Assembly (NCBI GenBank): GCA_051362555.1
Contig: CM120641.1
Location: 42,848,401-42,912,400 of the forward strand
DNA: 64,000 nucleotides
Origin: Lingula anatina
Taxonomy: Eukaryota; Animalia; Brachiopoda
Direction: 5' to 3'
Positions within the stretch are counted from its first letter, which is position 1. Every line of letters starts with the position of its first letter. A program made the translations under genes and the position numbers. Shown piece after piece: positions 23,993-46,365 of this stretch. A model generated the notes under the pieces. That model was not told where the DNA came from, did not search any database, and saw only the letters and a list, made by a program, of their open reading frames with translations.

Positions 23993-24549
23993 TATTTATA
24001 AGAAATATATGTGAGATAAGCCGTCCATTTTATGCCAGTTATTTTTATACAACATATGCATGTGTATGTACCCGTATCATCACTATGTTTCAGATTGCAT
24101 GAGAATTTCTGCAAATATGTGAAGGGATAGTAACTGCAGTGTTTATTATTGAACAGTGGCAGTTTTGATACTGATTACTAGTTTTATCATACATTTGAAA
24201 AAAAATATTATTGTTTAAGTTCTCATGAAAAATATGGTTAGTTCAGTGGTTGTGAAAAATCTTTGTGTAATAGTTTTGAATAGAGCTTTCTCCAAACAAA
24301 ATGAATAGAATTAATATATGAATTAAGATTAGGTCATCTGTAGACACTGATGCTTTTTGATGCATGTACTGCTTATACAAGGTTTATAGATGTGTGGTTA
24401 AGGTAAGGGCAATGGAAAATAGTCCATTTATTTTTCCTTTCCCAATATGTGCTCCTCAGAGCCCAATCACCATGTTTGTTGGTAGAAAGGTAAAATTATT
24501 TCATTTTTAGAAACAATTTATTTCAAATTTAAAGTTAAGAATTGGTGTG

Positions 24550-25020
24550 AAAACAGTATTTGGCTTCTTAAGGGGACAATTTCCTGAAGTGTGTTTTAAC
24601 ATTAAAATTTAAAGGTTTTGAGCCATCTGGTGATTGCCCACCCAGGCCTTGTGAACAAAGTAGCTGTTTGCAAACTTAAACTTTCAATTTGTGAGCATTC
24701 TGGGTTGAGAAAAAGCACCCATATTTATACAGCTAGCAACCTGGAAGTAAGCTGGCCAAATTGCTCTTTGTTGTGTTACTGGAGACTACTAATTTTAATT
24801 GAGGAAAAAATGCCATGAAAACTGGGTTTGAATCATAAATTTGGCACACATGCTTACAAATCCGAGGCTGGTGAACAAACTGCAATTATCTTCTATGAAG
24901 CCTGCCACAGGATGTTGGATGTCAGTTACATGCCTGAATCATGATGGATTTGTTGGAATTAAGCTTAGGTATAATCAAACCAACTGCATATTCTGGAGCT
25001 AATTCCCAACAGATTTCACT
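24550..25020 (-). pseudogene. Possible highly decayed ISL2EU/Harbinger-type (DDE_Tnp_4) transposase C-terminus
   Basis: Broken minus-strand fragments RHVTDIQ..VAGFI and WAITRWLKTFKF..NTLQEIVPL loosely resemble G..SD..I...SGF and ERAI.RLK.FKIL. Weak similarity. Confidence 0.3.
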
Positions 25021-25899
25021 TAAAATAGCAGTCTCCCCAACATACATTCTGCTCAGGTTATCTCTACATACTCACATGTTAATGCTCTAAGAGTCACTAG
25101 AATGAATGAGAGATCCAATGAACTCAGAATACACCTTGGTATAATCAGTTTCCATTTTCAGTTGTGAAGCTATTTCAACCAACACGAAACATAATGGGTA
25201 CTCTTTTCTGAATGGTAAAAGCATTTCTTAGTAGCTGTCATCTGTTTCACGAATCCCCCCCCCCCTCTCAAGTTGATAAATAAAGTGACAATCTTCTTGT
25301 GATGGTCAAATGAATTTAGCCTCTGGTCATTAAGTTCAAACATTTGTAACACACGATTTGGAATGAAAATTTCCTTGATATGGTTGAGGTCATTATACAG
25401 TGACTGGCAGCTATGGAATCAACTTCATCAGATTAGATTGTTCCCTTTCCCACTATGCATATTCTGGCCCAAAATCATTGCAATTAGAGAAGTTTCTGCT
25501 GACAATACCAGTCTCCCCAACATACAATCTACTCAAGTTGACTGTATATACGTACTCATATGTTAATGTGCAAAGATATTGAGTCACTAATAAGATTAAC
25601 TTAAAAGACAAGCATTAGCTTGCAAAAATCCTGAGTATCATTGTTAATATTATCTGTATTCAAATTTAATTTGGATTATTGATGCGATAGTAGAGGAAAG
25701 CAGTGATTTAACTCTGATGTCTGAATTTGTCTCAGACAGTTCGATATCTGCTACAAAGCATATCTCTTTATACTGTGTTTTCTTTGATTGGTGGATTTGT
25801 TTTTCAAACACAAACACACTAATCCTATTTTTTTTCTGCAGTGTTATTTCTATTGACTGGCTTCTTTTGTACGTATCTGTCACACTACATCTTGATATC

Positions 25900-26500
25900 T
25901 TTTATTGTCCTTTGCTTCAGAGGACACACAAACTTAACACTTGATGCTACAATACATAGTCTTTTATTTAATTGCTCTCAGAACTCCAATAAGAACTGTT
26001 GGTTAGGACTTATAAATTTTAGTACTTTACTAATTCTCATAAATGGTCATCTCATTGCCATGGAATTGATGTTTTTATCTCATATGACAGATGCATACCT
26101 CTGTGTCATTGCAGACAACAATCATCAGGTGGTTGTACTACTTCTTAGCAACTGGTTCCTTCCTGATGCCCAAGTCAGTCTGTGGACTCTAAAATAGTAT
26201 TTGTTTGCATATGCCTCTTATGATGGACATAGAGAGAGTCTCTGTAGTAGTGTGTGTGGCCTTGTATATTAATAAGGCTGTGATGAGGCCAACCCTATAC
26301 TGACCCCACTTCACAGACTTCGCTTGCTCATGTGTTACGCTTACCACATATGATGCCTGTGATGGGGTCACATTAATGTCCACACTGTCTGCATGTGCCA
26401 GTACTTCTTCATATGAGGCATCCCTCAAACTATCATTCCTGACTGACTTAAGGTCAACTGGCCAATCACCTTCCAGTGACAGACAGGACAACAGCAGTTA
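25900..26500 (-). pseudogene. Decayed YqaJ-like (lambda-exonuclease family) ORF of a DNA transposon (ISL2EU/Kolobok type)
   Basis: THEQAKSVKWGQYRVGLITA..YKATHT...LSMSIIRGIC matches T..Q..S..W...R.GRITAS. A frameshifted TDLG..KEPVAKK.Y follows, matching the WG...E..A...Y motif. Confidence 0.6.
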
Positions 26501-26884
26501 CTTTTTCAACAGCACACTGTAGACTGCTTCAATCTCACGTTTTGTGGGTGACGGTATATTATTTGGGTCCTTTATGGGATGAACAAGTGCCAAACAATCC
26601 CTCCACTTTTTATTTGCTGACTGTAAGTCTAACTCTCAACTTTGTTTGTATGGATGTTCCAACTACAAGAAGAAAATAAAAAAGATCTTTAAAATACTAG
26701 TAATAACACATGTACATTTTTCATATGGACATTGGAGTAAAATGATAATTAACCAAGCCTAAAAGAAATTTCACACACAAATTATATTCATAACATCTGT
26801 TTGATGCAGATTTAATCATATTTAATATAGTAATGCTACTTTGGCAATGCCTTTTTATGGTCCTCTTCTAAGTCTTAAATCCTG

Positions 26885-27137
26885 TAGTATATTGCCCTGT
26901 GGGTGAGGGATACTTTTTTTTTTTTATATACCAAACACAGGATGGAATGACTCTACGGTTACCAAGAGTTGGTCTGTTATTCTGCCATATTATATAAATG
27001 CATTATGCATTGTGCCTCATCGCAGCATTGTCCTCTTTTCCTGGCTGCCTGTCTTCATTTTGAAAACCTAGAATGTCCCCCCTGGCCACCCTAATTATTC
27101 CCAGGTGGAACTCGTCTGTTATATCCAACTTAATAAC
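26885..27137 (-). pseudogene. Decayed P2X7 C-terminal (ballast)-like / KolX-like exon, copy 1
   Basis: Translates as [47 protein letters not shown], matching RH.AYR.Y..W....LG..RR.IPSC.VW.IR..YP...G.Y.GF. Confidence 0.75.
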
Positions 27138-27183
27138 ATATGAATAAAAATGCACAGAAATGTCCATCACACTTGTGTAGTAA

Positions 27184-27802
27184 AGCCCGCCGTACACAGA
27201 ACAATTTTTTGTTGGCCGATCGGTCGTCCTGGATGAGATCAGCGCACACACACACGACAAGCTGTCGCAACGAAGCGCCAAGTGGTGTGGTGAAAGTGAC
27301 GTATCTCGTCCGCGAGGTGGGGTGTTGTTTCAAAATGGCTGTAATTTCGCTGAAAATTAAAAAAAAACTAATACTAATAGAAAATTATAGGGCCTTCCAT
27401 CATACTGACCGGTCATACCGACTTCCTTTGCTATGTCGAACCAAGCTGCTGCCTTTTTCACTCGGTTTCCAACTCGTGACCAAAATGCCCTCTTTTTCAA
27501 TGGACCACTCACTATTCAAAATTTCTTCACCTGTACTTTCCTCACGGCTATCACTGGGGGCATCCATATTGAATTCTGGCATGGGCACGTGATATCAGAT
27601 GGCGCAACCATTGGCTGAAGATAATGATCAGCCCGACAAATTGTCGTAGGAAAGCGCACACACTACGGTACGACGTTTAAAAATCAAACATGTTTGATTC
27701 TCTCCCGACTAGTTGAAAAGTTGTCATGGAGCAGCGCAGACGGGCCGATATTTTGTCGTAAGTGTGTCGGCCGACGAAAAATCGTTTTGTGTGCAGCAGG
27801 CT
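27184..27802. mobile_element. PIF/Harbinger internal-deletion derivative, 619 bp
   Basis: TIRs agcccgccgtacacagaacaattttt / aaaaatcgttttgtgtgcagcaggct. TAA TSD at 27181-27183 and 27803-27805. Inside is a minus-strand MADF/Myb-like start, WSIEKEGILVTSW. Confidence 0.85.
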
Positions 27803-27837
27803 TAAGCAATTGCTGCTCTACACAATATGTCCTGTGT

Positions 27838-28098
27838 CAAAACCCCTATATTTCACTGTAGGTGAGGGATACTTGTACCACACACAGCATGATGGGATAA
27901 TTTGACTCTATGGTCACCATGAGTTAGCCTGTTCTACTGCCGCATTATATAACTGCGGTAGGCATTGTGCCTTATCGCAGCATTGTCCTCCTTTCCTTGC
28001 TGCCTATCTTCATTTTGAAAACCTAGAATGCCCCCCCCCTCCCCCGGCTACCCTCATACCCAGGTGGAACTTGTCTGTTATATTCAACTCCATAACCT
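27838..28098 (-). pseudogene. Decayed P2X7 ballast-like / KolX-like exon, copy 2
   Basis: Direct duplicate of 26885-27137; translates ILGFQNEDRQQGKEDNAAIRHNAYRSYIMRQ*NRLTHGDHRV, with frameshifts. Confidence 0.75.
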
Positions 28099-28199
28099 GT
28101 AAATAAAAATACAAAGAAATGTACTTCACACTTGTGTAATAAGCAATTACCATGATTCTGAGACAAGTAGGAGATGGCCTGTTTCCCTTCTTATCATCC

Positions 28200-29261
28200 A
28201 TGAAGAGGGTCCCTGAGATGTAGAGTTTTGATACTGGATATTTCTCATTTGCGGTTTCAATTTATTGATTTTAACCTTGTAGCTATCGACGGAAACAGCC
28301 TGAATAATTTCTTGTAGCCCGGCTGTCCTGGGCAACTTAACAAATTATGAGTTCTGTCCAGGAGGTAATGGGCATCAAATGCCTCTGGAGTTTGGGACAA
28401 TTTTCTTACCTCCTCTTCATCAGGTTCAAACAGCTGTGTCAGCTGTTCCTGAAACTCCTTATTAATCATCGAGAAGAGGTCTAACAACACTCTTCAGTTA
28501 AGAAGACGTAACGTGAGGCTTTCCTCAGTTACATTCAGGTGTTGTCTGAATTCTTCCCTGGCTTCTCTTTCTCCAGGCATAATGCTTTCCTCAGAATTCC
28601 TAATAAAGGCCAATCTGCTCATATCGGGTATGTCTTTAAGCACCCCCATTATCCTGCAAGCTAGTGTCTGCAGGGTGGCCACTCTTTGCATATAAGTTTC
28701 CGATCTATGCAGCATAGGATGGAAAATCAAGGGCAGATGGCAATCAAAAGCATGTTCAGCTGCTGTATCTGGGCCCTTGCACCAGGACAGCAAATATCTC
28801 TTTTCTCTCCCTTGACATGGCGCTTTTGCCGCTGGTGAATTGGAAGCCATTCTCCTCCCATGAGGATAACTCCTTTCAACCTGGCCCCTGCTCAGGTCTT
28901 CTGAAAGGAGAGGACAAATTTCTCCTCTGCTTCCTCCAGTCTTTATGGTAAGGACAGCCTTACCTCTTCTTAGAGGATCCACTTTTATCTTCTGCTGTCC
29001 ATACTGCTGTTGATGTCACCTTATGTCTAGGTTCAGACGTTGGTGAGAAGGCAACTCCTTTGAGTGCCCAGTCTCCACCTCCATTCTGACCTCGAACCAT
29101 TCGCCACAGAAGTCACACCATGGCTGTCGGCAGTTACAGTAGACTCTATCATCACCTCTTCTGGTTGCATGACTCTCTGGATTTTTCCTCCAATGACCAA
29201 TCCACTGTGGTAATTCCGTGTCTTTACACGACTTAAGTCGGTCATGACTGGCCACAAACAC
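28200..29261 (-). pseudogene. Fragmented ORF with a PHD-finger-like N-terminal segment, probably from a mobile element
   Basis: VYCNCRQP.WCDFCGEWF in ORF 29016-29261, followed by consecutive minus-strand ORF pieces 28494-28982, 28257-28490 and 28147-28335. Confidence 0.45.
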
Positions 29262-29544
29262 TGTGCCTTAAAAATGTGTCCCTGCTAACAGTGACAAAGA
29301 GAGAGGTTATAGAAAGACAGGTTTTTGATCCATGTGTATATTGATCCACTATCTCTGAAAGTAAAAGTGGAATCGGAAAATAACACTGGTCATTGTTTAT
29401 AAAAAGCAAACTATTCAGAGCACACAGATGCCTGAAAAACCTGGACTGATTAGTTGCCACACTGGCGTGCAGTTCCTTAGTAAAATGCACCGACCAATTA
29501 AAGGAACCACAAGCTGCCCTAAAAAGCTTCTTTTCTTTCGACTC

Positions 29545-30300
29545 AAGTGACATCCTGTGGGAATATTGACAGAGGCGAAAATTGCAGTAGTTGCCTGCAT
29601 TCCATTTGTTGCAAGTGGGTTTGGTTTGGGGACGAAAAGTGCTTTGGGTTTGGGGGCGAAAAATGCTTTTGGGGGTCATGGTCACATATGCAATTTCAGT
29701 AAGAATGACGCTGTCCGGGATTTCCCAATTGCATTTCAGGGCAGCCCTTTTCATTCAAAAACGTTCATCGTAGAGGCGCCAATTGGTGATTTTGTTAGAA
29801 TACATTTCTAGTATACGGTTTTGGTACGCGATGAGATTAGTTGATTCGTCTGGAAATTTTTGAGTGTACACTGCCTTAAACACTCCGAAACCTACTAGCC
29901 ATTGGAATATTTTAATTTCCTTTTTGTTTTGCTGAGTAGGAAGAAGGACCAAGGGGGCTGCCTGATCAAACTGGGGTATTACCAAAAATTGGAGGGAGGG
30001 CTCCTGTTTGTCTCTTGGGAGCAGGGTATTGGACATGTGTGGTATAAGGCCTTTGATATTAACATACTGGTCTTCTTGAATTTTAGTGATGGTTATCTGG
30101 GAGAGGTGAGTTAGTGATTGGTAGGCCGTATCTGTAGATGCTGCCAGGGTTGAGTCCCCTGAACCCAACTGGGTGGTTTGCAAGTGAAGAAGGGTGGGTG
30201 AAGATGTACAGTTGAATGTTCCATCTGGGTTCACCGTTATAACCTGATATTCCCAAGAATCCAGTATTGAAAGCAATAGGTCCCTTGAATCCAATAAAGC
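29545..30300 (-). mobile_element. Ngaro/DIRS-type gag-like ORF1 relic (copy A)
   Basis: QWLVGFGVFKAVYTQKFP..TNLIAYQNRI..WRLYDERF followed by the CCCH finger CNKWNAGNYCNFRLCQYSH; homologous to the ORF upstream of the RT at 39505-40330. Confidence 0.8.
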
Positions 30301-31139
30301 TTGATTGCCAAAGCTACCTGACTTGGTGCTAGGTATCAGATCTGTGGGTCCTGGCTCTGGATCTTCTTTCTTACCAAATATATATCAACTCAGCGATGCT
30401 TCATACAAACTTCTTTCTCCATCTTATCTCTTCTCTGTAAAGTAGCGATCTGCTGGTGTCTTGTGTTCTCGCGCGTATTACGCATCATGTCACGTGACGA
30501 ACATGCGTAAGTTGTTATTGGTCTATTCTGGTGTAGTAGGAGGATCGACTGTCGGGTGTATATGTCAGTCTATAACACTTATGAGCCACATTGCGTGGCT
30601 CAGGAAGCGACTAAAATATCCTTGCATATAAGTGAGATTATTTCATAATCTTTATTAATGACACCAGGTGAGAGTTGATCTTTTCTTGGCTTCCTAAATC
30701 TTGGCATGCAACGTTTACAAAATGGTGTGGATTCATCAACAGTCCCTTCTAATCCGACAGCACCTATGAAGTAGTTGTTACATTCCTGTAGACTGTTTGA
30801 AGGGCAAAATGCAACATCCCCTGGTTAACTGCCAGTTGCACTGTGCACAATATCCTGTGAACAGGAAAAGCAATTTGGACGCCTTAAAAAATCATAGTAC
30901 CTACTATAGTGTGGGATACACAAGGTAAATGGTAATGTTGGTACTGTGGAAACAGAAGATTCTAAAGAAAAACATGGAATTATGTCTTCAGGACTACCAA
31001 GACTTGTCCTCTTAACTTGAGAACCAGAGGATTGCTGGCAAAAAGGTAAACAACACTTACATGTACTTTGTTCAGGTTGATCATTCTTGGGAGTTTTACT
31101 ACTACGCACCAAAGACTTAAACAAGAATAACAAAAGCAA

Positions 31140-31830
31140 TCACTATCTTTGTAAGAACCACCTTGTCTTTTTTCCTCTTCCAAAGCTACCGACTGGTTGC
31201 TAGAAGCAGACTCTTCACTGACATTAACATTCTTGTCGTAAAGACGCCAGTTGGCATAATGGCAATTGGCCTGCATCTCTCAGATTCTATTAGCGTATTA
31301 TAACAATGGAATGGCCTGGGAAGGCTGTAAGTATCTGAAATGCACATTGCCACTGATTTGGTGAGATGACCTCTGTCTTTTTACTTGTTTACCATTCTCA
31401 TCTAATTGTTTCTTATGGACAAAGTGCTCTTCGTTGTTCTTTTCTGCCCTGGACAAGGTGTTGGAGATAGGGGGAATGAGAAATGTTACCTTGAGGAGCA
31501 GTTGCAGTGGGGAAAGTATAGGCAGTCGGCATGTCCTGGAATATGCTGTTGAGGAAAAACCTGTGGGCAGCTGCGCTGGCTGCAGTGCTTGGCGCACTAG
31601 TTGTAGCCTTCGAGGCCTTCTGCGCAGCAGACCTAGTGCTGGCACGAGTACTGATTGGTACGGACGCAATTTATCCGGTGGATCTGCTGTCCTCGGTTGC
31701 GTTCTTGCCACTACCTGCAGTAGCAACATCCCCGGTAGGGAGAGCCTGACATGGCTGAACGCTAATGACAGTAGCCAGTTGATCGAATAAAGACCGTTGG
31801 TCTTTGGCCACCATGACGAGAGTTACGCAA
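31140..31830 (-). mobile_element. Ngaro/DIRS-type gag-like ORF1 relic (copy B)
   Basis: YLQPSQAIPLL*YANRI*EMQANCHYANWRLYDKN; in-frame stops and deletions. Confidence 0.7.
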
Positions 31831-32449
31831 TACTAACCGAGGGCGTAGACAAAGAACCGATTGCAGAACGTCCACAAAGTCAAAGCGCAGCAATAAAAAC
31901 ATCCCTAAAATCCAACCAGAAGTTGTAATCCACGATAAACTGTATAGAAAACCAAGAAACTACTTGGTAACCAAAAAGAAGTCCAGAGAAAAATCAAAAA
32001 CACAACAGAGACGAAGTGAAAACCTGATTCGCATGTTCAAAGCAACTAAGTTCACTGAGCATGCATGGCCTAGTTCTATCTCACATAAGCCCTTTGTGAG
32101 TGAAGACGAGGCATATTTACACAAAATAAATCAAAGATTAACATGAAAAAGTAAAGGCAATCAATGCAGTCTTAATCTAAGCTATTTTGAAGAAATGCTC
32201 TGAAGTAAATGACTTGTAATCTTTCGCTAAACCAGACAATAATCAAGCGAGTAAAGGACAGTGAATAATTGAGTGTAAATTAATTAAGATTCAACAAGTT
32301 TAGACATTTTATCGCAGTAGAAACAGAAGGAACATGTCAAAGTCGGGTAAAGTTGGTTTTGATTTGAATAATTTTTCAATACAGGTGTAAAACATTAATA
32401 CTAAAACTATAACAACTAATATTACTAATACTAAAACAGATTCACTACA

Positions 32450-34348
32450 CTAATTTTTGTTACTCGCTCTCAAATTTCTATTGGCAGTGTTCATTGCTGA
32501 AACCATCTTTCCCCAAAAGTTCTTGGTTAGTCTTTGCTGCTCTGGAAAGTAACGACTAACAGCTTTCTGTATGAACTGGATTCTATTTCTGTCCAGTGGA
32601 CTTCCACGTTCTTTGTAAGGTCCGTCCTCTCCTCCCTGCTAAAGAGCTGCCCCATAAGCTTAACACAAAAATTGGTTGCCTCCGTGGAATTTTGTTTCAG
32701 GACAAGGAGCTCATTCTCAGTGGGGAATAACGGACGGGTCTGTAGTACACGTTTGCCAATCAGAACCGTTTATACCATTTCATGTGATCTGTTTAGGCTT
32801 TCACCCAAGTTTTTCAACCATTCATGAGTCTCATATGGTATCAAATTTTCATTCACACAACCTGTTAGTAAATGTAATGGCATAAAAACTTCCCTCCCTA
32901 ACATCATCATGTTAGGAGTAAACCCTGTAGATGCATTCACAGTTAAGTATTATGCCATAACTAATTGAGGTAGGTCTCTATCCCAAAATCTCACATTACC
33001 TTCTACATTACATCTAATCTGTGCAATAATACCCATGCATCTTTCAACTTGGTGTGCTGTCGTCATCAATCACGATGTCTGCACATCCAGCCATGGCAGC
33101 CTCGAGGTTCCCCGCTGTGAGCGGCAATGTTTGCCTTCACCTGCAATTAATTACAGACAAATTCATTAATTTGTAATCACAATAAAAAAATGTAAATAAA
33201 TATTAATGTTTGTTTATACTTACACTGTTGACGGGCGAAGGCGGACCACAGTCTTGAGGAAGCCGAAATTTGCCTTTACCCACTGCTCCCTCTCTGTCCG
33301 TTTCAGGGCGCTGTCACCGTTCTTTTTCTTGTCAAGACGGGTGTGGGTATCTCACAGGGATTTGAACCACCCTTAAAGGTTCTCAACAGTCTTCTCTGTG
33401 GCTTTGGTTTGATCCTCCCAAAGCTTTGCCTTCTTGTCCACTCTCCAGTAGTCTGTCTTCTTGATATACCAGAGGATGGTGTTCTCATGAAGGAAATCAC
33501 ACATTAGCTGCTCCTCTTAGACATTGAGACAAAACTATTGAACTATCCATAATAACAACAGGTCTGGTAGCGGCCCTGTCCCCTAGAATAGCATCTAGCT
33601 CCTTAAAGTACAATGTGTCCACCTGGGCCCTACCAGACCTGTTGTTATGGTCTTTTTGTTTTCTGTAGTTCTTCGTGAGGTTCCTTATTTTGTTCCTGAT
33701 CTCAGTTTCCGTGAACTGAACATCAAGTTCATCCTGAAAAATATATAGTTTATCTGGAAAAGCTTCACACATATCATATATGAGCATGCAGTAGTAATAC
33801 CCCTCCACCTACCTACACACACCTTCAAGGTGTAATCCATCAGTTTCAATGCCAAAACCAATTTTTAACACTTAAAAAACGCTAAAAAAATCCAATATTC
33901 TCTTTCAGATATATAAGTTTATCGCACATGACAAAATTCACGGTGATAACCTACCTTCAATCTAAGCCCTATTTCACGGAATACCGATTTGTTTTTCGTG
34001 TTTCCTTCCAACCTTCTCTGTATTTCGGTTTAAGACCATAGGGCCAGGAGGGCCTTAATAGCCTCCTCTGGCCACGAAATCTTTTGTTGCTCATTCTGTC
34101 ACGATATGGAGGATTTTCCCGCAAACGAGGTCTGCTGATGAATTGCCCACTTGTGCGCATGCGCTTCATATGTAGACATCCGGTCTCAACCGTGGTCAGG
34201 AGTTTACTCCGATTATACCCACCTCCAAATCTGGGTTTATTTCGACTGCGGTCAGGGCTACGTCGTCCATTCACATTAGAAAAGTCCACCACGATAGGAC
34301 CGAGGTCAGGCCTTGACCGTGGTTAAAAGTGCCAGTGTGAATGGGGTA
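32450..34348 (-). mobile_element. Truncated Harbinger element: one TIR plus a decayed spliced ORF encoding a Myb/SANT (trihelix) domain and a C-terminal BEN-like domain
   Basis: Terminus TACCCCATTCACACTGGCAC on the minus strand at 34348, next to TTA. WPEEAIKALLALWS*TEIQRRLEG..KNKSVFREI splices to FTETEIRNKIRNLTKNYRKQKDHNNRSGR..YFKELDAILG. The last exon (from ~32861) gives TNFCVKLMGQLFSREER..LDRNRIQFIQKAV..FP..FWGKMVSAMN. Confidence 0.75.
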
Positions 34349-34999
34349 TTATTCTTCTTGGTTCTCTTCTTGGCAAGGGTTGGCTGGGAGGAGATGGAGG
34401 CCACTGGGGAAGCAGCTTCCGTTACCATTGACGATGCCTGAGAGGCATTCCCTTCACCTAAAAAACCATAAGTAAAACATTTTTATTGTAGTAAATAGCA
34501 TAATGTACTGTATCAACAACATTATTCATCCAACAAACTTTCAAACAATAATGTTAAATACTATAGGCTCTGTCACACCTACCGTAAATAGGTATAGTTA
34601 TAAGGATTACATGTGACATTGATCATATGCAAAACTTTGAGCATATCCAATCACCATTTCAAGCACATTAACATAAAGATTTAAGAAACATACAGAGTTT
34701 TAAATAACATAATGAAATAAAAATAAACAATAAAAATTTTATCTCCCTGTGAGTAGTGACTCAAGCTTTGTCATAGGGCACATTTACACAAAAAACTTGT
34801 CTGTATGGGTCATTTTTCTCCCACCTAAGTGCTATATGCTAGGGATAACAGTACCGTAATCTAACTCTGTTCAAATATTCCAACATACATTGCACACATT
34901 GTGCTAATGAAGTCAAAAGAATGTAAATTGTCAAAAACATTTTAACTTTTTTTTTTGGCTTTTTTAATCTATCATCAATCAACTGTCATGTTCTTACTG

Positions 35000-35790: not shown

Positions 35791-37389
35791 CTGAAAAATT
35801 GCATTTTAGCTAAAAAGTAAACCAAATCAATTAAGATCTGCAACTTTGATAAATAATTCTTTGGTCTTTTTTTTTTTTTTTTTTTTTCATTTTGCATGGA
35901 CATCTGACTATTTGAAAAAAATTCTTAAAAAGGAGCTCTAATTTTTTTTGCCATAAATATTGCTCCTTATTGCTTTCCAAGTTTTTTCATATGTAATTAA
36001 TATGTTGTACTATTAATCAAATATTAATTTTCATTAAGTTGGGGGGGGGGGGGGGGACTGCAAAAGCGGTAAATTTTACCTGGCAAAAGGGCTTAGTTTT
36101 TCCTGGCAAAAGGGTGGTTAGTATGTTGTAGATGCTGGATATATACTAGCTGTGAGATTTTGTTATATATTAAACTTTATATAGTACCGCTAATTCGCCT
36201 GTACTATTAATGAATAACATACATCTTTTTGGGAGCCTAAAAGATTTATTCGTATATTCTTTCTTTCCAGGTACAATGTATTCTCTTTTATCCTATAGAG
36301 CGTCATTCCAATGTCATGATGTATCACAAAGTCTTTCTCCTACATTACCTTATTTGGTAATGTAATAATTCCTCAGCTCTTACACAATGTCTATGATTAT
36401 CCATTTTTCCATAACTTTCCATCATTACGTCATTACTAAAATGTAATCATTCTCTTATTAGGCAATGGTATGATACTTGACCGTAGGTCGCAATTTCTAT
36501 TAATACAGATTTTTCATTGTAACATCCTGAAGGAATGATAACAATACTCCCTTATTCTTTTTTATTATTGAACAACACATGAACTCTTTAACTCTCTTAC
36601 TTACACTGTTTAATCTTTTAACAAATGTATATTGTATCAGTTATTAAATGTACAATGTATCTCACTACGATCACAACTTAATCATTTTCATTACGGTATT
36701 TATTTGAAAATTAATGTGCACATCGCAATTAATGTACCTGTACGCAGAGATCTGCACTTACACTAGGATAGCATAATTGTTAAATTAGTAAATAAGTTGC
36801 CAAACTATTATATTTAATTACCAAATGCATGGGTCTAAGTCACCACAAAAATTAATTTAGAAAAGGTTTTGAAAGTCAAAGATCGAGGAACATTGCGCCA
36901 TTCGTGGTGGTGGCAGTGGTGATCCCGCAAAATTGCTAATTTGTATATCTTACCTCTTTCCTCTTCTCATGACTTTGAACAATTCTATGGTAGATCAGGA
37001 CACCAGTGTTGACTTCGAAATGAACAATTTTGACGTATAGTTTAGTAGGAGATCGTTGATTTTGCAACGGCAACAAAATAATGTCGTCTGCACTCAGACT
37101 TTCTCCAACGGCAGCACGAACATCCCCGCATTAAAAGTTCACTCTTAAACGTGTTAATGAACAACAATATGTTTATTTTAATTGCCTGGAAATTAAAAAA
37201 AAAGAACAGCTTTGGAATTGATATCATTCAATGGGGAAAGTGGAGTTCTTAGGCGCGAAAGTGTGAACATACACATTTTGATTGGTTCCCAGGAGTCACA
37301 TGAAACATTTCACAGGCATCTGCCACAAGGCATAGTACTCGCAGTCTGTCAGTCACTGCTAAGCACTACCTTATATAGAAATTAAAAAA

Positions 37390-40300
37390 GAATGGTAAGA
37401 AGGTTGAAAATCAACTATGATTCGGATGAAAGTGAGTATGATTATATCCGGAAGTGCAGGCTGAAGGTACGAATCCCAGCGTAGCAAGCAGGAGGGTATG
37501 TTCTGTGTCGCTGAGAGTAAATTCACTTATTCGTAACAGTCCAAAAAATGCGAGGGCGAACATTGCAGCTACAAGGTGAGCCTCATATATAGAATCCGTA
37601 GTTTTTGGTAGTGTTTGAATAAGACTGGCTAGTACTGATAGGGTCACCGGAGACCTTGTATCCATGTACGGGTTCTTCTCTCCAGACCTTGTAAAGTCTA
37701 CTTAACGATAAAAGAGGCGGTTGGGTCAGGAATATTAGCCATTTTGTATTTGTAACTTAGAGCTGACATATGTGTTCTGATTGAGGATGTCTTGTAGCGG
37801 GAACTTAGAAATTGAACGAACAAAGCCGTGCCTGCTGGATTGGATGGGAAAGCACTGAAGTTTGTCTCTTGCTGAAAGTCGGCTAATAATTCGTTTATCT
37901 TGGAAAAGGTCCTTGCTGGATTTTTTGCGAGCGCATTCCTCAATGTGTGGTTCAAGTCCTCAGCAAGTTGGCTGGCAACCAAGCTGGTGGGATGGGAGTA
38001 GGGTCTGAATCTGCCTGAGGGCATAGTCTCCTGAAATCCTGTAATTTGGAGCAGGATAAGGCATCAGCCGCACAGTTTTTTACGCCTGGGATGTGGACAG
38101 CTCGAAAGTTAACATTGTTTGTAAGGCAATGTAAAATTAGTTTTCTAAGTAACCTCATGATAGAATGGTCCTTGGATGTACATTTGTTCAGTATAAAGAT
38201 TAAGCCTCATTGTCCATATATATTGTAATTTTTTTGTTCCTGATTTGTCCAGATGAGGAAGGCTAGAATGATAGGATACAATTCCAGGAAGGCAATATTT
38301 AGGTCTTTCAGTTCCTGAGGCCAGTTTCCATATAACCATTTTGTATCAAATGTTGCCCCAAAACTGAAACCTCCCGATGAATCCGTGTATATACATTCTG
38401 TAGGGGCAGATGACCATGTTTCATCGTAAAAGAAGCCTGCCCGTTAAATGATTGGAGAAATGATTTCACACAGGCCTCGTTATTGAGACAAATTTTGTAG
38501 TGTGGCAGAAGGCCCTACCAATGGGGATAATGAAACAACAGAAGTTCAGAAGGCCGATCATTGATTGCAGGTCATGGAGGGTTATCTTTTTCTTGGACTC
38601 ATGGATTTGTATTTGCTCTAGGCAGTTTTTTATCTTTTCTGGGGGTAAACGGGCTTCTTGTAGCACAGTGTCAAGTTCTATACCAGCAAAGGACATAGTT
38701 GTGGCAGGGGAGGTGGTCTTTTTTGGGGCCAGGGGTACACCTATGATTTCGCACTGGTTTTTAAAACGGTCAAGACGGTCCTGACATTCCTGTTTAGCCA
38801 GTATAAGAAAATCGTCCAGTAAGTGGAGGATGTCAGGTATGTCTAATTTTTCTTTGGCAATCCACTCTATTGCCGAACTAAAAATTTCAAACTTTTGGCA
38901 ACTGGAACGCAGCCCCATTGGGAGGTTTTTATAAAAGTAAAATTGGGACTCAAAGGAGAAACCCAGCAAAAAATGGTAATCTTTGTGTATAGATAAGATC
39001 CGGAATGCATTTTGGATGTCAGTCTTGACCATTAGGGATTTAGTGACTTGTATGGCATCCGAGACGGTGGCGTAGGACACTGAGGCAAATTCATCGTCAG
39101 TGCCGTCATTTACCGAGTGATGTTTAGGATAAGAGAGATTGTGAATAAAACAGAATTTTCCAGGGGTCTTCTTTGGAACTACAGAAACTGGGGATATGGT
39201 AAAAAAGGGGAAGGGGGGGATGGGAAAGGGGCCTGCTATTCGTCCAGCTTGGATTTCAGAATCGATCTTTTCCTTGAGTTTCTCAAAATGCTCATGTTTT
39301 TTAGATTTTTGTGAGGGAGAGTGAGGTAACTCTCCTTGGTTAGGGATGATAAATCCTTCTCTGAAGCCGTGAGTTAGAAATTTTATGATATGGGGATTGT
39401 AACCCTCCAAAAGGTTTTCCAATGCAGTGTGGTTTAGGGGGGTAACAATATTTTGATCCAAAGGTAATGAGGGCTTATTAATTTTGATAATTTCCAGAAT
39501 TGGGTTAGATGAATTTTTTGTGGAATTTGGGTTGGAAAATTTGGGACTTTTGGTGGCTAGAGAAGGTGTAATGGCTGTTGGGGAAGGGCTTTATGGGGTA
39601 AAGGGAAGTAAAATGTCTAGCTCCGGTTGAGTGGCATAAAGAGAGGGGGTGATCTTTGTTGCATAGATAGCATTTGTGCTGATATCTGCAACGGGTAAAT
39701 GAACATTTTCCTCTATTGAAGTTTTTACACACCTCAGGGGGGCGAAAATTGTCTAGTTTTGGGGTCCCCAGTGAGTGACCATAAACTATGGGGTCATCCT
39801 CCTCCCACTTGATGCCTTCGCTGCCTCGTTTTTAGCCGGAACCTCTCATCGTAAACCCTCCAATTTGCTACTTTGTTAGGGAACATCGCGATAACCCTAT
39901 GGGCATAAACCAAAAGGGGGATGGCTTGATCAGGGAATTTTTGTAGATAGATGGCCAAAAAGATTTGCCATGCTTGGCAACACTGGAAGGAGGTCAAATC
40001 AAATTTCTTGGGAGAAGGGGCAAGGATCATTGTGATCTGGCCTTCCTCGTTCCATTCAGTTTGCGTTGAGCAAATTTCAGGTTTATCCTCCCTGCTTGGT
40101 GCCAAAGAGTCAGGGGGAAGAAGGTCTTTCAGATTAACGAATTCATCATCCCAAATTTTTGATCTTAATTTGTGATTTACATGGTGGTCAATTGAAGTTC
40201 TGGGAATTTTCTTACCTTGCTGAGAATCCGGAAATTGGGCTAGGGCATATGTGAAGTCATGTTGTGGCGTCTGATGTGCAAAATTTTGGTGGGGCATTTG

Positions 40301-40400
40301 GTAAGGGGCGATGTATTGAGGGAGAAAAGGTTGGGGGGCATGGAATTGGATTGGTAGTAGGGGGATGGGTTGACGGGGACAGTTTTGAGATCAAATTCTT
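37390..40400 (-). mobile_element. Tyrosine-recombinase retrotransposon (order DIRS, Ngaro-like): gag ~40330-39505, RT 39461-38466, RNase H ~38460-37952, partial YR ~37950-37411; frameshifted and 3'-truncated
   Basis: RT: PVSVVPKK, HNLSYP..SVND, KTDIQNAFR, LPMGLRSSC, HLLDDFL. RNase H: YTDSSG, AVHIPGVKNCAADALS. YR: MFALAFFGLLRISEFT. Gag CCCH finger CKNFNRGKCSFTRCRYQHKC. Confidence 0.92.
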
Positions 40401-40709
40401 GAACTTCTAATAGAGAATAAAAATAGTATTTGGTGTATCTATTATTTCTTGTATTGTTAATGAAGTATAAAATCTGAAGTTATAGTATAGTAGTATTGTA
40501 TTTGGCGTTATTGATTTCATTACATGTACTTATATATATATATATATATTTGGAAAAGATATCAGTAATTCATAATGATACTGATTTTTTGTAACAAATT
40601 CTCTTACCATTTGCTTGTTGATTTTGACCACTTTCTAAGTCTGCTTCCAGAGCATCTACATTTGTGAAGCTTCTTAGTGGCAAATTATAACAGTCATCCT
40701 CATAATTGT

Positions 40710-42225
40710 CTTTTTTTTTCATCAAGATGCTTCTGGGTTAAAAGGGTCTTCAGCAGTTTTGGGTTGGTCTGTACTTGTTCTCTGATTTGCTCCAGGGAAG
40801 TCAGTAACTTAATTTGAAACTCTGTAAGTCAACAGGGTATATTGCCCACAAATAAAAAAGAATGGAAAAAATGTTGCTGCTATATATGCTATATATATGA
40901 TAGCAAATATATGTTCCTGTCAATTCCTATGATAGTAAATACATGTTCCTATCAATTCTTCTGATGCCATTAAAGTCAAAGCCTTATTGTCCTCCTTTCC
41001 CAGCCAGTTGAATTTTGTAGCCAACTCATTGCCCAAAATCTTGGTCATGACCCGATGTACTGTTTGTTTTTATGTATCAACACCGGTGAAACTCAGGACA
41101 CTTATCTACTAGAAGATATGACGTGGAAATGGTCCTCACCTTTGTGAGATTTTAATTAAGATTTATAGCTGAGTGTCTTTGAATTTATTCCATCGAAAGC
41201 AGGTTTTGGATGGGCGAAAGGGCTGCTCCTGTGTTTTTGGATGAAAGTAATTTCGGCCAGCAGCACTGCGTCAGGGACCTCCCACTTGTAACACATGGAC
41301 TTGAAGTTGGCCCGGAAGCGTTCGTCATAAGATCGCCAGAAGGAGACCTTATTTGCATACATCTTAACTATCCTATTGTTAAATTGCAGAAGATTGAGCA
41401 ATTGATGGGGGAATTTTTGGATGTAAATAGCAGAAAAAATATTGAAAGCCACTTGCCATTGCGGGAAGGTTAGTGATGAGCTCTTTTAAGTGACTGGGGC
41501 CAAAATGAGGGTCAGGTTGCCTTCTGCATCTGTCTTTTTCAGTTGGATGAATTGCTCATCATCGATGGTGTCGAAGGGTGTCAGTGTGTTGGAAGTATGG
41601 GGTAATAAGTCTCTAAGTGACACATACTCGTTGTCCCAGATCTTTTGGCATAAGGTTTTAAATATGTGATGGTCCAAGTCTGCCTACCTTCCTGTTGGCC
41701 CAAGGGGCCATCCTGGAGTGGTTGTTTGCCCTGTCGCCTGTTCCCCTGTGGGATGAAGTGGTGCTTGTGTGGTGAATTGGCCTGCCTGGGTGGGAGGGCC
41801 CATGTACCCCTAATTTTGTAATGTTGGCATGTGGCCTTGGCTGTGAGTTTGGGTAGCGGTGGCATCACTTTGCTAGAAAGTTGACGTGCTTCCTGAGGCA
41901 ACAGCTGTGGCTGGCATTGGGTGTGTCATAGGTTGGGGGCCAAGGTCCGTATACCTTGGCACCGTGGGTCCTGTTTCTGTTTGTATGGCGCCCACGGAGG
42001 TCACCATGGTCACCATCTTCATAATTGTCCTTTTTTTCATCAAGATGCTTCTGGGTTTAAAGGGTCTGCAGCAGTTTTGGGTTGGTCTTTACTTGTTCTT
42101 TGATTTGCTCCAGGGAAGTCAGTAACTTAATTTGAAACTCTGCAAGCCAAAAGGGTATATTGATAGCAAATATATGTTCCTGTCAATTCTTATGCCATTA
42201 AGGTCAAAGCCCTCTTATCCACCTT
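40710..42225. repeat. Direct repeat pair ~40710-40990 and ~42030-42225
   Basis: catcaagatgcttctgggtt.aaagggtct.cagcagttttgggttggtct...ccagggaagtcagtaacttaatttgaaactctg and gatagcaaatatatgttcctgtcaattc occur in both; coordinates span both copies. Confidence 0.85.
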
Positions 42226-43283
42226 TGTTAGACAAAGGTGGGCATTGGACTTGATTCACTTGACAAATGTGTAAAAAGAGTAATCCCTTTTTATATATGG
42301 TGGTGTCCTGACTAAGGGAAGGCACTGGTGACTGCTTAAGTGTTAGGATTCATAGGCATTTGTTGTCTGCTTGGATTCATGGCGGTAGCCTGATCACTCA
42401 CTGTGGGCTCTTGACTTCTGGCTTGCAGTAAGGAATGTTAGGTTGGCTGCGGTATACTTGTGTAGGTTGGCGACGGCAAAGTTTCTGTCATTGAAGTTGC
42501 TGTGGCCCATGTCAGCTGTGGACTTATATTATACTGACTCACCAACATCCCCACTGATTGATCTTAGTTTGTCTTTTAAGTTGTCTCTTTCAGTTTTTCT
42601 GTTTGCAGCTGTAAATCTTCTTGTTTCTCTTGGTGTAAATTTTTTCATTTTTTCCGGGATCTTTCCTTTTAACAGTTACAATTAAAAGGTTGGTCACTCC
42701 ACCAAATTATCAGTGAGAGATGCCAGTGTCAGTAACAACAGAACTGCCGTCTCGGTTCCAAAATCAAAAAGGTTGCTTTATTCAATTTCAATCTGATATT
42801 TATTACAAATTGCTAGCCAAAATAACATTTTTTAATGTTTATCTCTTTTACTTTCCATTGAGAAACTCTGGAAGATAACTTTCACACACATCTAATGAAT
42901 GCCAACACATCTTTTACTTTTGACTTCATTCAAGTATGTGTGAATAAAATACTTCCACAGCCCTCAGCTTTGCACCCAAATAACCTTATCATAAATGGTC
43001 AAGTTCATCTTTCTGTACTTCCGAAGCAATGCCAGCATACTTCTGTTTCTGTGGCAGTTGTGCAAGCAGTTCGCCTTGCTCTTCAAAAGAGGGTCTTCCT
43101 TTTATCCACCTTCCCCAGCCAGTTGAATTTTGTGGCCAACTCATTGCCCAAAATCTTGGCCATGACCCGACGTACTGCTTGTTTTAATGTATCAACACCG
43201 GTGAAACTCGGGACATTAATCTACTAGTGGATATGAAGTGGAAATGGTTCTCACCTTTGTGAGATTTTAATTAACATTTATAG
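40995..43283 (-). repeat. Direct repeat pair 40995-41168 and 43110-43283 encoding a DUF4806/BEN-like transposon accessory fragment
   Basis: Shared cccagccagttgaattttgt.gccaactcattgcccaaaatcttgg.catgacccga...gattttaattaa. Minus-strand translation VRRVMAKILGNELATKFNWLGK; coordinates span both copies. Confidence 0.75.
41170..42030 (-). mobile_element. Ngaro/DIRS-type gag-like ORF1 relic (copy D)
   Basis: MDHHIFKTLCQKIWDNEYVSLRDLLP...AFNIFSAIYIQKFP..LLQFNNRI..WRSYDERFR..WEVPD. Confidence 0.8.
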
Positions 43284-43299
43284 AGTGTCTTCCTCGTTT

Positions 43300-43625
43300 T
43301 CTTTTTTTACCAACACCTGCAGAGGTCAAGCTGTTTGCAACCTGCGATTAAAACTTTCGAAGAGGCATAACTAAATTCTTTCCCAGGCCCAATTCTTCTA
43401 CATGTAACCTTCTGTAAAGAAACCATGCATTGACAAGGGGCCATTGTAAGGGAATGTGTGAAAATGTACATGTACCATCTTTTACAGCGATAGGGGTAAC
43501 AGTACAGATTGGTACACATGTTGAGGAGGTCAATACCTCCCATAAACTTGTTGTATTCAATCGGGTATGATAAAGTAGAATGCCCTGCTGACCTAGAGAA
43601 ATTGCCTGGTTTGTTTCTCACTTCA
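43300..43625 (-). mobile_element. piggyBac transposase C-terminal relic
   Basis: YNKFMGGIDLLN..NLY...RCKRWYMYIF.H.L..., then frameshifted LVNAWFLYRR...MPLRKF. Confidence 0.9.
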
Positions 43626-43699
43626 TTTTTCCATCTCTTTCAGTCCTCCTAAAATAGATTTTCAAGCCAGTGGTTTCTTGAGGTCATAGACTTCTATGT

Positions 43700-44400
43700 G
43701 TGGGGCCATATTTGGTTGTCTCTCATTGTACAGAGTATGGCCATTTAGACAGTCAAACATCTTGTCAAATTCAAAGATCTTGTCAAATTGTGAATAAAAT
43801 TCACGGTTTCCGTAGTTTTTGCTCCGCCATATATCAATGTGTCTGTCTGCTGAATCTTGGCAAGCGCTTTGTAAACTTGACAGCTGTTCTTTATCATCTT
43901 AATCATTCTCCTTACTTCTGATATCTGAAATATCTAATTTTTCCCTAATTTCAGGGTCCAGAGCCTCAACGTCATCGGGGTCCTCATCAGTCATATCTAA
44001 AAACATGTCTACCTCTTCATTAGACTCTTATTTTGCTAGCTTTTTCAAACAAGTCCTCTGCATCACAGGCATCCTCATCCGAGTCTGACGACAATGTGTC
44101 ATGACTCCGTTTCTTACTGTTACTACCAGTGTGGGCAGTCTGAGGGGCCTTAACCACACCCTCCTCATCAGAGTCTGATGACACTGCATCATGACTATTA
44201 CTTTCAGAGTGGGCAGTCTGAGGAGCCACAGAGTGTACCCCACTGGAGTGAGCCTTGCTCATCACCATCCATGCCTCACTCATACTGGCCATGGCCCTGG
44301 CCATTTTAGTAAAGTTTGCGTCTATATTGCTTATATATTCATTCATCCCAGTTACTGAAGAATTTTTCTCCTCTTCTAGTGTTTTTTTTGTGATTCCCCC
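43700..44400 (-). pseudogene. Decayed acidic ORF with an internal duplication, possibly ORF1/gag of another retroelement
   Basis: ORF 44020-44346 with APQTAHSESNSHDAVSSDSDEE / APQTAHTGSNSKKRSHDTLSSDSDED, continuing through stops to ~43700. No diagnostic motif recognised. Confidence 0.35.
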
Positions 44401-46365
44401 ATTTTACACATCATGTACAGTCCACATAAGTTAAATAAAGAATCTCCGAAAGTCACAATAGACAGGATACTAAAAATTGCAAGAGAACAATAACCCAATA
44501 TAAAAAACCTAGATAAATAAGAAAGCAATTGACTCAAAGACCAGAGGTAAGAAAATGCGTCCTACTGATATCACAACTAGGATCACAATTGACTAGCAGC
44601 TGGGCTTCCCCCATCTCATGTTACTCCTGATTGACTGACGTGTGAGGTAGAATTTAGCATGGTTCAATATATTCTAAGATGTGCTACGGTAATTCTCCAA
44701 TCTATACGAACGCCGCAATAATTACGAACGGAACGTTTTTTCTCTGAATCTGAATTTTTTGTCTCCGTTCTGTACGAACGATCGCTAAACTCACCTTGGG
44801 CACAATTTAAATTTTCCGAACGCAAGAAAGTGTGCCCAATTGAAACTCGTATTCACTTTTGATTAGAGAAAGTCACAGACAGCAACTGGATTTTATGATA
44901 GCCACAACTTCATAGTTGAATGATTTTTTAGAATAATTTTTATTTTAGCCTTATCAATGATGCCATCTTTGTTGAATGCTATCATTGGTCCAGAGAAATT
45001 TGTTAGCATTTATGCCACTAGTTTTTTCAGAGCAGGATACCATTAAGGGAACTATTTAATAAAAATATTAGAGATTGAATTGTTCTGCTGTTCTCAAACA
45101 TGATATAAATCACTTTTCAAATCAACTTTCAGTTTTAATAGTGGTACAGCTTTTCTCTTAGATAATAGATGCTGGTGTCAAGAAACAACAAAACTGCCGT
45201 CTCAGTTCCAAAATCAAAAAGGTGTCTCTATTCAATTTTAATCATTTATTTATAATAATTTGTTAGTCAAAATAACATTTTTTCATGTATATCTTTTTTT
45301 ACTTTTTGCTGAAAAACTCTGGAAGTTAGCTCTCACACATACCTAATGAATGCCAACATATCTTTTACTTTCGACTTCATTAAGTACATGTGAATAGAAT
45401 ACTTCCACAGTCACTCAGCTTTGAACCCAAATAAACCTTATCATAAAAATACTTGTGTGTCGCATACAGTGATCGATGAGTAGTTGTAACTGTTTTATAC
45501 CGTGATTGGCGCTTCAAACAATAGGAAGAATGCATCGAAGCACATGAAAATACAGGCAAGCAAGCCTGTATGCAAAATACAAATGCATTTATCTTATTGT
45601 TCGAAGCACCAGGCGTGGTATAAGTCATATTAATGCATGAATACTTATCATTGATGAATGTTACTGTTATACTGTTGCTATAGTTCTTGCCTTTCAAAAA
45701 TAAACTATGACTTGCATAAGTCACATTAATTATTATTAATAATTGTTATAGCAGAGGTAGTCTATAAATAATAATCCAGTGTATATGGTAATTCAGTTAC
45801 ATTTATTTTACATTATATGAAGGATTTTAATAAATGTTTAATCAAAAATTTAACTTCATTTGGACTTAAAATGTGTTTGTGTGTGTGTGCATACATATAT
45901 ATACTATATTCTGAATGAAAATAAAAATATCAAAATGCTGTTTTATGTCATTTATTCATTACATTTTACTACTGATATTTATAATAATAGAATCTTTTTC
46001 TGTTTACTGTTAAAGATATACACGGTAATAAACACCTAAGGTACAAAATGTCAAAGACAAAATCTGTCTAGACTGGCTAGTTGTGTGACTTTCAAGATAA
46101 GATAGAATACTTTATTATACAGTTTGTTTACTTTATTTTTATGTTCAGATCTATATAACTTCAAAAACCTTTTGCCTAATATGGCACCTATTATATACTA
46201 CTATACCATAACATAGTGAGTACTGTAGTCTACTTTTGTTGAATGTACAGACATACTAAAATGTGCACAAACTCAGGGAACGTTTAAAATTTTAAACTCG
46301 TGGGAGAAGGGTGCCTCTGTATATTATTTCATTAGCTTCTAAGTAGTGCTATGAAACATTTGTCA

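Follow-up and report, generated by a model that had tools for sequence, protein, structure and literature searches.

Introduction

The origin of piRNA clusters and what drives their transcription are open questions outside flies, mosquitoes, and mammals. As described in the available text of bioRxiv 10.1101/2022.08.22.504762, mosquito read-through core clusters are one-direction loci that begin immediately after an expressed gene of the same strand, with antisense cargo and RNA visible in oligo-dT libraries. Mammalian piC-DoGs have dense antisense transposon fragments just downstream of a host gene and a 3′-extended transcript, according to the accessible portion of PMC11615739. Within Spiralia, that portion describes uni-strand clusters in planaria and in the slug Arion vulgaris, in which piRNAs are made opposite to the packed fragments. 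As far as these two sources go, this layout yields piRNAs in a slug as well as in mosquitoes and mammals. Clusters are also described in oyster and in Lymnaea, the latter with abundant Gypsy elements and DNA transposons, Kolobok among them (PMC6128900, available part). In the accessible portions of PMC11615739 and PMC6128900, none of the slug, planarian, Lymnaea, or oyster clusters is tied to upstream-gene read-through, and these animals include no brachiopod. Our search of bibliographic records returned no paper on a Lingula or brachiopod piRNA cluster and none on NAA80 with piRNAs.

Here we describe a block of ~21 kb in a 64-kb window (the whole stretch of DNA analysed) of the brachiopod Lingula anatina. 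Like the mosquito and mammalian clusters, it lies directly behind an expressed gene and carries cargo antisense to its RNA, here transposon fragments. The mosquito clusters differ in that piRNAs, chromatin, and upstream-gene knockdown have been shown there, whereas the Lingula block is known from DNA and long RNA; the Aedes cargo is viral, whereas that of the block consists of DNA transposons and YR retroelements (bioRxiv 10.1101/2022.08.22.504762, available text). The leading piC-DoGs exceed 50 kb, carry LINE/ERV sequences, and are described in gonocytes, whereas the block spans 21 kb, with a convergent gene at its end (PMC11615739, accessible portion). A first-pass annotation had called the block flamenco-like. 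Drosophila flamenco and flam-like loci share an antisense array of transposon remnants on one transcribed strand; unlike the block, they extend over hundreds of kb and have a Gypsy-driven bias and their own promoter (PMC10643416, available part). Since flam-like loci are defined there by Gypsy enrichment, the comparison is wrong in detail and the block is not strictly of flamenco type: DNA transposons and Ngaro-type sequence dominate the block, and Gypsy amounts to two pieces (29025-29282 and 32767-33054), ~0.55 kb in total. Strict flamenco-type loci are further marked by expression in ovarian somatic follicle cells; the Lingula runs used here bear codes rather than tissue names. The read-through clusters of mosquitoes and mammals appear to fit better.

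Results

The upstream gene, NAA80, matched solved NAA80 chains in a PDB search (E = 7.8e-6 and 1.9e-4), and three GT-AG introns (22320-22974, 23051-23235, and 23366-23719) were spliced in RNA; a loose read end lies in exon 1 at 21418. NAA80 is expressed from the plus strand, as is the block RNA, and the first confirmed piece begins 2.9 kb past its stop codon. The convergent gene, previously named CHAC2, belongs to the ChaC family, an assignment that holds at family level only. Features of the locus, in window coordinates, are as follows.

21346..23992, plus: NAA80 coding exons (PDB match; RNA-supported introns)
23993..46700, plus: low-level RNA, antisense to the pieces, ending inside the ChaC 3′ end
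24901..25614, minus: two GIY-YIG-like scraps, presumably Penelope-like (by motif)
26192..26680, minus: putative YqaJ-like piece (first-pass label)
26871..27183, minus: Kolobok KolX (P2RX7_C) piece, copy 1 (Pfam E = 5e-7)
27847..28142, minus: KolX piece, copy 2 (78% identity over 308 nt to copy 1, co-oriented)
28284..28841, minus: TatD-family ORF piece (strongly supported)
29025..29282, minus: C-terminal PHD finger of Gypsy-type integrase (strongly supported)
29524..30384, minus: gag-like piece 1, Ngaro-type (E = 6e-20 to gag upstream of RT)
31220..31480, minus: gag-like piece 2 (tblastn E = 1.6e-5 and 0.005)
31817..32330, plus: A-rich stretch with a 109-aa ORF (codon score, 11.0 versus 9.7)
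32474..32712, minus: weak BEN-like piece (Pfam E = 0.03)
32767..33054, minus: Gypsy-type integrase core piece (tblastn E = 1.5e-9; profile E = 3.5e-18)
33220..33519, minus: weak MADF-like piece (Pfam E = 0.021)
33590..34077, minus: Myb/SANT piece (model positions 3-42 and 47-89 flank an intron)
35029..35802, minus: CACTA/EnSpm transposase piece with internal deletion (E = 9.5e-30)
37414..40390, minus: Ngaro-type remnant with gag, RT, RNase H-like, and the start of a YR-like domain (RVT_1 E = 3.3e-7)
40695..41179, minus: weak DUF4806-like piece, copy 1 (Pfam E = 0.066)
41240..41677, minus: gag-like piece 4 (E = 2.7e-26)
42014..43291, minus: DUF4806-like piece, copy 2, in two parts (42014-42162 and 43098-43291; 93% and 90% identical to copy 1)
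43400..43639, minus: piggyBac transposase C-terminal piece (Atlas score, 0.97)
43665..44403, minus: putative P-element-like scrap and acidic ORF
46366..48125, minus: ChaC-family gene, the convergent block boundary (Pfam E = 5e-31; spliced reads)

The earlier observation of ~21 kb of one-way transposon remnants between the two genes was confirmed in its core. For the rest of the window, the first-pass annotation had noted only small MITEs; none of 137 ORFs outside the block matched a transposon family in Pfam, and the ~43 kb of flanks, including the other intergenic gaps of the window, contained no such remnants. Repeat searches gave no convincing terminal-repeat pair around any piece or around the block. 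The idea that the locus hosts a known small RNA was rejected, since the 64 kb gave no Rfam or tRNA match.

Several of the proposed family labels needed correction. The P2RX7_C domain identifies Kolobok KolX (PMC9587614), and both KolX-like pieces of the first-pass annotation were recovered. The TatD-family ORF piece, which has relatives at two other Lingula loci, is probably of mobile origin. The ORF described as PHD-like does encode a PHD finger; it is not a separate element but belongs to Gypsy, because the finger is the tail of the Gypsy-type integrase. All four gag-like ORFs are related to each other (32-57% alike), and their "gag" identity is deduced from position upstream of RT. For the CACTA transposase, PF02992 was present in 45 of 47 homologues, and the profile skips from 312 to 461, an internal deletion. 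What had been called Harbinger Myb-BEN retained its Myb/SANT domain, which we take to be Harbinger-type, while the BEN match is weak. This piece keeps a GT-AG intron at 33734-33954, which disfavors capture from mRNA. In the Ngaro-type remnant, gag, RT, RNase H-like, and YR-like segments are colinear and form one element. Its RT was confirmed; we assigned RNase H and YR from motifs that we take to be diagnostic, and neither matched Pfam, nor did a PDB search with the YR-like segment give anything relevant. Repeat searches found no split direct repeats around this truncated remnant, and its domain order and lack of a methyltransferase were read by eye, with RT alone confirmed by a tool. The order gag-RT/RNase H-YR is that of Ngaro-type elements (PMC9210276). 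For piggyBac, 28 of 30 Atlas matches were DDE_Tnp_1_7, yet the score lies below the tool's recognition level, and Pfam and PDB were blank. The DUF4806-like duplication is real and its family label weak.

Other labels found no backing. The YqaJ-like piece had no usable match in Atlas and no support from Pfam or PHROGs. The GIY-YIG-like scraps, which contain a DNA repeat (25024-25092/25504-25576), matched no family in Pfam or PHROGs. The P-element-like scrap and acidic ORF had no match in PDB (P-like part), the homologue search, Pfam, or PHROGs; among 649 candidates, no homologue was found for the frame with the acidic ORF, the P-like scrap, and the DUF4806-like pieces. The plus-strand ORF at 31817..32330, a possible exception to the strand bias, had no match in Pfam, PDB, or PHROGs. 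DNA self-comparison confirmed the reported local duplications (KolX, DUF4806-like, and the repeat within the GIY-YIG-like scraps). With their retained intron, internal deletion, and local duplications, the pieces have decayed in place; several of them are old and may have ceased to match active elements.

Strongly assigned sequence makes up 36% of the block. Pfam searches of six-frame read-throughs gave one transposon match in six frames, and tiles gave 2/78, 0/18, and 0/18; these blanks are weak evidence because Pfam missed the confirmed CACTA and Gypsy pieces. PDB searches gave nothing relevant for the P-like, piggyBac, integrase, YR-like, and plus-strand pieces, PHROGs gave 1 chance-level match in 30, viral-contig scans found no relatives, and a metagenome scan found one distant RT.

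All 12 assigned pieces (Kolobok KolX, Gypsy, Ngaro-type, Myb/SANT, CACTA, piggyBac, and the TatD-family ORF) lie on the minus strand, as first reported, with homologues sought using minus-strand queries. The earlier estimate of about 1 in 2000 for ~12 independent pieces was too strong: they merge to ~9 insertions from 6 families, for which the chance of a shared orientation is 0.03 counting families and 0.004 counting insertions, a level expected by chance among the ~250,000 windows scanned. A strand-blind codon model favored minus in 32 of 42 tiles (p = 0.0009) and in 12 of the 14 tiles scoring >8, with 2 favoring plus (p = 0.013). ORFs of at least 100 aa numbered 18 on the minus strand versus 6 on the plus strand, and at the curated Pfam cutoff matches were found for 3/130 minus ORFs versus 0/129 plus ORFs.

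We used same-species raw RNA-seq data. All nine available runs are long RNA-seq; seven (coded X1 to X7) were used, at ~6% of each (25% of X7). The plus-strand RNA predicted by the first-pass annotation was present in all six stranded runs, making up 76-99% of block depth, and stopped at ChaC. Plus shares were 0.99 (X1), 0.96 (X4), and 0.92 (X5) at 95% likeness and 0.87 (X2), 0.76 (X3), 0.85 (X5), and 0.87 (X6) at 90% likeness; the unstranded control, X7, split 46:54 (plus share, 0.46). These shares include peaks at 34217-34255, 42910-42960, and 44685-44849, which, like one at 45507-45554 (X2 and X3) outside the summed bins, were attributed to reads from other copies on account of their loose ends or numerous differences. 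In X6, plus RNA occupied 25/25 bins at a mean depth of 2.1, about one eighth of that on a ChaC exon (16-19); in most runs, depth was low and patchy (mean, 0.16-0.8). Because the signal is stranded, DNA contamination was rejected, and because the RNA ends at ChaC, so was an intron of a longer plus-strand gene. No splice joint was seen at this depth; a joint at 42928-45419 connects two copies of a repeat and was discarded. The depth of ChaC's own RNA, 9.13 at first, is down to 0.08 one bin inside the block; extended run-on is therefore not a general feature of this locus. Three of four runs had transposon-sense reads of at least 90% likeness on the Gypsy integrase piece, which hints at expressed targets.

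Plus RNA in X1 was unbroken from NAA80 to 27.5 kb and then fell to 0-0.04 at 27.5-28.8 kb; X5 was empty at 24.8-26.8 kb, and X6 was examined from 28.7 kb onward. Block depth ranged from ~1% (X1) to ~10% (X4 and X5) of that on NAA80. These data suggest that the block RNA may be continuous with NAA80 and leave NAA80 a plausible source, although the gaps and the varying ratio count against it. The first AATAAA past the NAA80 stop is at 25279. The plus strand holds 23 AATAAA versus 12 expected, so nothing points to lost stop signals, and poly(A)-signal loss is unsupported as the cause of run-on.

Discussion

The pieces lie in minus orientation, the RNA is plus strand and antisense to them, and it ends at the convergent ChaC gene. 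We judge it somewhat probable that read-through from NAA80 feeds the block and that the block acts as a uni-strand source of piRNAs; the earlier piRNA-cluster reading is partly supported. Polymerase from the NAA80 promoter would pass a weak 3′ end and run to ChaC, and processing of the RNA would give piRNAs that begin with U and are antisense to Kolobok, Gypsy, Ngaro, Harbinger-type, CACTA, and piggyBac elements. Selection would retain antisense insertions and tolerate deletions, because, we propose, even a short antisense piece is enough to guide silencing. We hold more tentatively, at somewhat less than even, a specific form of the model: a brachiopod read-through cluster in which a shared ARMT1/NAA80 promoter region gives an antisense precursor of 25 kb, bounded by the convergent gene. 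Its archive would comprise pieces of DNA transposons and YR retroelements, many of them derived from accessory genes (KolX, Myb/MADF/BEN, and gag).

The main competitor, which we consider unlikely, is a passive sieve: termination of NAA80 would be leaky, sense insertions, which would be expressed or would disturb NAA80, would for that reason be purged, and antisense ones would accumulate neutrally and give no useful piRNAs. The lack of an AATAAA for 1.3 kb past the NAA80 stop agrees with leakiness, as does the decay of X1 depth from 46-93 on the exons to ~2 by 26 kb; RNA in X6 and X5 shows no decay over distance, the bias persists to the far end, 21 kb off, and the other intergenic gaps of the window lack coding remnants. 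Mouse genes offer a precedent for read-through RNAs without piRNAs, but, in the accessible portion of PMC11615739, such genes had no antisense excess.

Less probable again is that a promoter of the block's own, close to its 5′ end as in flamenco, drives a uni-strand piRNA source and that NAA80 is a mere neighbor. A CpG-rich stretch at 27.0-28.0 kb (22 and 21 CpG per 500 nt versus 1-4 upstream), the X1 coverage gap near 27.5-28.8 kb, and relatively high block RNA where NAA80 is low (X4 and X5) would suit it. Against this, no pile-up of read starts was seen in the block, the block sits directly behind NAA80 on the same strand, and some gaps are to be expected at such a depth when the sequenced individuals are polymorphic. 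We find it very unlikely that the block is a few nested or composite elements with local duplications, co-oriented by chance and incidentally transcribed. The first-pass annotation had named one or two large composite elements among the findings that would refute its reading, and some merging did hold: gag-RT-RNase H-YR is one element, the PHD tail is colinear with the Gypsy core and both may stem from one split element, and the KolX and DUF4806-like pieces are duplicated. Yet six unrelated families are left after merging, the four gags are only 32-57% alike, no bounding terminal repeats were found, and the codon test and one-strand RNA are independent of merging.

The block is small and sharply bordered by two single-copy genes, and one-strand antisense RNA has already been seen over it, which makes it a convenient locus for testing read-through in a third lineage of bilaterians. 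If the model is true, the read-through mode would extend from mosquitoes and mammals to Spiralia, and this would suggest read-through as a general bilaterian way of founding clusters.

RESULTS

The transposon remnants of the block (about 24.5 to 45.5 kb of the window), between NAA80 (plus strand) and a convergent ChaC-family gene (minus strand, from 46366), share one orientation. In keeping with the shared orientation claimed in the first-pass annotation, all 12 assigned pieces (Kolobok KolX, Gypsy, Ngaro-type, Myb/SANT, CACTA, and piggyBac pieces and a TatD-family ORF) are on the minus strand. A tblastn search with 61 homologues gave 70 matches, all on the minus strand and within the block, the queries themselves having been drawn from that strand. 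Merging pieces wherever one element was possible left ~9 insertions from 6 unrelated families, for which the probability of a shared orientation by chance is 0.004 and 0.03, respectively, rather than the 0.0005 originally calculated. Strand-blind measures agree with the bias: long ORFs in the block number 18 on the minus strand versus 6 on the plus strand, and a codon model (trained on 2,313 host codons) preferred the minus strand in 32 of 42 block tiles, compared with 28 of 48 tiles to the left of the block and 22 of 34 to its right, where minus-strand genes lie. An A-rich stretch at 31.8 to 32.3 kb may be a plus-strand exception. Given the size of the scan, orientation odds alone are insufficient, and RNA provides an independent test.

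We mapped reads from 7 of 9 same-species RNA-seq runs, all nine of long RNA (the mapped runs are coded X1 to X7). The strand convention was set by spliced NAA80 reads (first mate minus in X1, X4, and X5) and spliced ChaC reads (first mate plus in X5 and X6). For X2 and X3, in which no spliced reads fell in this stretch, we adopted the convention of X1, a run from the same study. The plus-strand share over the block was 0.99, 0.96, and 0.92 in X1, X4, and X5 at 95% likeness (23 bins); at 90% likeness (25 bins), it was 0.87, 0.76, 0.85, and 0.87 in X2, X3, X5, and X6, giving an overall range of 0.76 to 0.99 in stranded runs versus 0.46 in the unstranded X7. The plus-strand, antisense transcription that the first-pass annotation had anticipated is thus present. 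In X6, plus-strand RNA covered 25 of 25 bins at a mean depth of 2.1; reads on the opposite strand fell in 6 bins, and most of them mismatched at many positions or had loose ends, which is what reads from other copies would show. Plus-strand block RNA died away at 46.7 to 47.4 kb, and ChaC RNA measured 16 to 19 on the last exon and 0.08 one bin inside the block. No splice joints within the block were found among the reads at this depth. In X1, 42 reads enter at 25387-25389 from sequence that the window lacks; the junction falls at an AG, a possible splice acceptor, and the outside sequence may represent a distant exon, another allele, or a paralogous locus. In 3 of 4 runs, transposon-sense (minus-strand) reads with 90% or higher likeness to the Gypsy integrase piece fell at 32703-33369; these possibly come from an expressed relative elsewhere.

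At the curated level, Pfam gave 3 matches among 130 minus-strand ORFs of the block (P2RX7_C, Myb_DNA-bind_4, and RVT_1); the 129 plus-strand ORFs gave no match. Pfam is insensitive to pieces as decayed as these, and homologue searches supplied more assignments.

Pieces in the block
28284-28841, minus: TatD-family ORF; homologous to a Lingula protein containing TatD, which has relatives at two further loci
29025-29282, minus: Gypsy-type integrase tail; homologues have RNase H, rve, and PHD domains
32767-33054, minus: second Gypsy-type integrase piece; matched by the same proteins as the PHD tail
35.0-35.8 kb, minus: CACTA transposase piece; best E value, 9.5e-30; PF02992 in 45 of 47 matches

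What had been listed as a separate PHD-like ORF is the Gypsy-type integrase tail, and the first-pass annotation had overlooked the second integrase piece. The TatD-family ORF, which appears to be of mobile origin, immediately follows the PHD tail (28284-29282, minus strand). A TatD nuclease gene may be part of Gypsy elements here; a literature search for TatD with Gypsy or retrotransposons found nothing relevant. P2RX7_C is the fold of Kolobok KolX, as outlined in PMC9587614, and Ngaro anatomy was compared with the outline in PMC9210276. The four gag-like pieces are mutually related, one lying directly upstream of the RT. The putative piggyBac piece is identified from an Atlas match, and the BEN, MADF, and DUF4806 assignments are weak. 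The YqaJ, acidic-ORF, YR, and RNase H labels of the first-pass annotation, which are readings of motifs by eye, drew no support from any tool, as was true of our own presumed GIY-YIG-like and P-like scraps. A short ORF in a CpG-rich stretch (27403-27594, minus strand) resembles, by motif, another MADF-type start; family searches gave no match. Strong pieces cover 36% of 24.9 to 45.45 kb, weak pieces cover 7%, and pieces recognized by eye cover 10%.

The Myb/SANT piece retains a GT-AG intron between its domain halves, the CACTA piece lacks ~150 profile positions, and duplicated blocks of 150 to 300 nt are 78 to 93% identical. The 25 longest of 222 inverted repeats include no pair that is conspicuous as terminal repeats. 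This pattern would fit insertion as DNA and then trimming in place. The piggyBac, P-like, and acidic pieces lie between the two units of a 280-nt direct repeat (42718-42995 and 45167-45447; 85%), both of which also attract reads from other copies.

ARMT1 (minus strand, start at 20915) and NAA80 (start at about 21346) are head to head with start codons ~430 nt apart, which suggests a shared bidirectional promoter. The ARMT1 exon is 100% identical over 254 amino acids to a Lingula anatina protein (next-best match, 57%), and NAA80 is backed by matching solved structures and spliced reads. Intron 1 of NAA80 holds a small, highly repeated element (21567-21900) with hundreds to ~2,000 loose-end reads on both strands. 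Searches of the 22 kb between NAA80 and ChaC found no host genes, tRNAs, or Rfam families, and none of 137 ORFs outside the block matched transposon families. Three tandem innexin genes (48933-61340, minus strand) have unbroken coding regions; two are 78% alike, and the third is about 46% alike. Two long low-complexity plus-strand ORFs (8290-9063, 257 amino acids, with an internal repeat; 12790-14295, 501 amino acids), without Pfam matches, are probably host-gene exons.

DISCUSSION

We lean toward a reading in which NAA80 transcription would continue through the block as far as ChaC, the RNA would be processed to antisense piRNAs, and antisense insertions would be retained as a consequence of that output. 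PIWI genes occur in almost all lophotrochozoans, as summarized in PMC11114477. Mosquito read-through clusters (outlined in 10.1101/2022.08.22.504762) and mammalian piC-DoGs (outlined in PMC11615739) work in the way proposed here. Between the NAA80 stop and 25279 there are no AATAAA signals and one ATTAAA (24601). Against simple read-through, coverage of the block is patchy in most runs, X1 has a gap at 27.5 to 28.8 kb, block RNA does not track the NAA80 level, and AATAAA is in excess on the plus strand of the block (23 observed versus 12 expected).

A cluster driven by its own promoter, rather than by NAA80, we judge improbable. Orientation and antisense RNA might also mark a passive sieve with no piRNA function, which we regard as rather unlikely. 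That a few composite elements happened to be co-oriented is very doubtful, the merged pieces still spanning unrelated families.

A slug has uni-strand clusters that contain antisense fragments (outlined in PMC11615739), and a snail has Kolobok-rich clusters (outlined in PMC6128900); PMC12479628 gives general background on mollusc piRNAs. The flamenco-like label of the first-pass annotation holds for the one-strand antisense remnants, whereas the Gypsy enrichment that PMC10643416 outlines for flam-like loci is not seen in the block. Searches by title and start of abstract on Lingula piRNA, brachiopod piRNA clusters, and NAA80 with piRNA did not return the locus; supplementary cluster tables could include Lingula. 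For the phylum Brachiopoda, where no such locus was found described in the literature so searched, the block is a genuine feature, with antisense RNA from one strand, and a strong candidate piRNA-cluster locus of a known kind, recognized here from sequence and long RNA.
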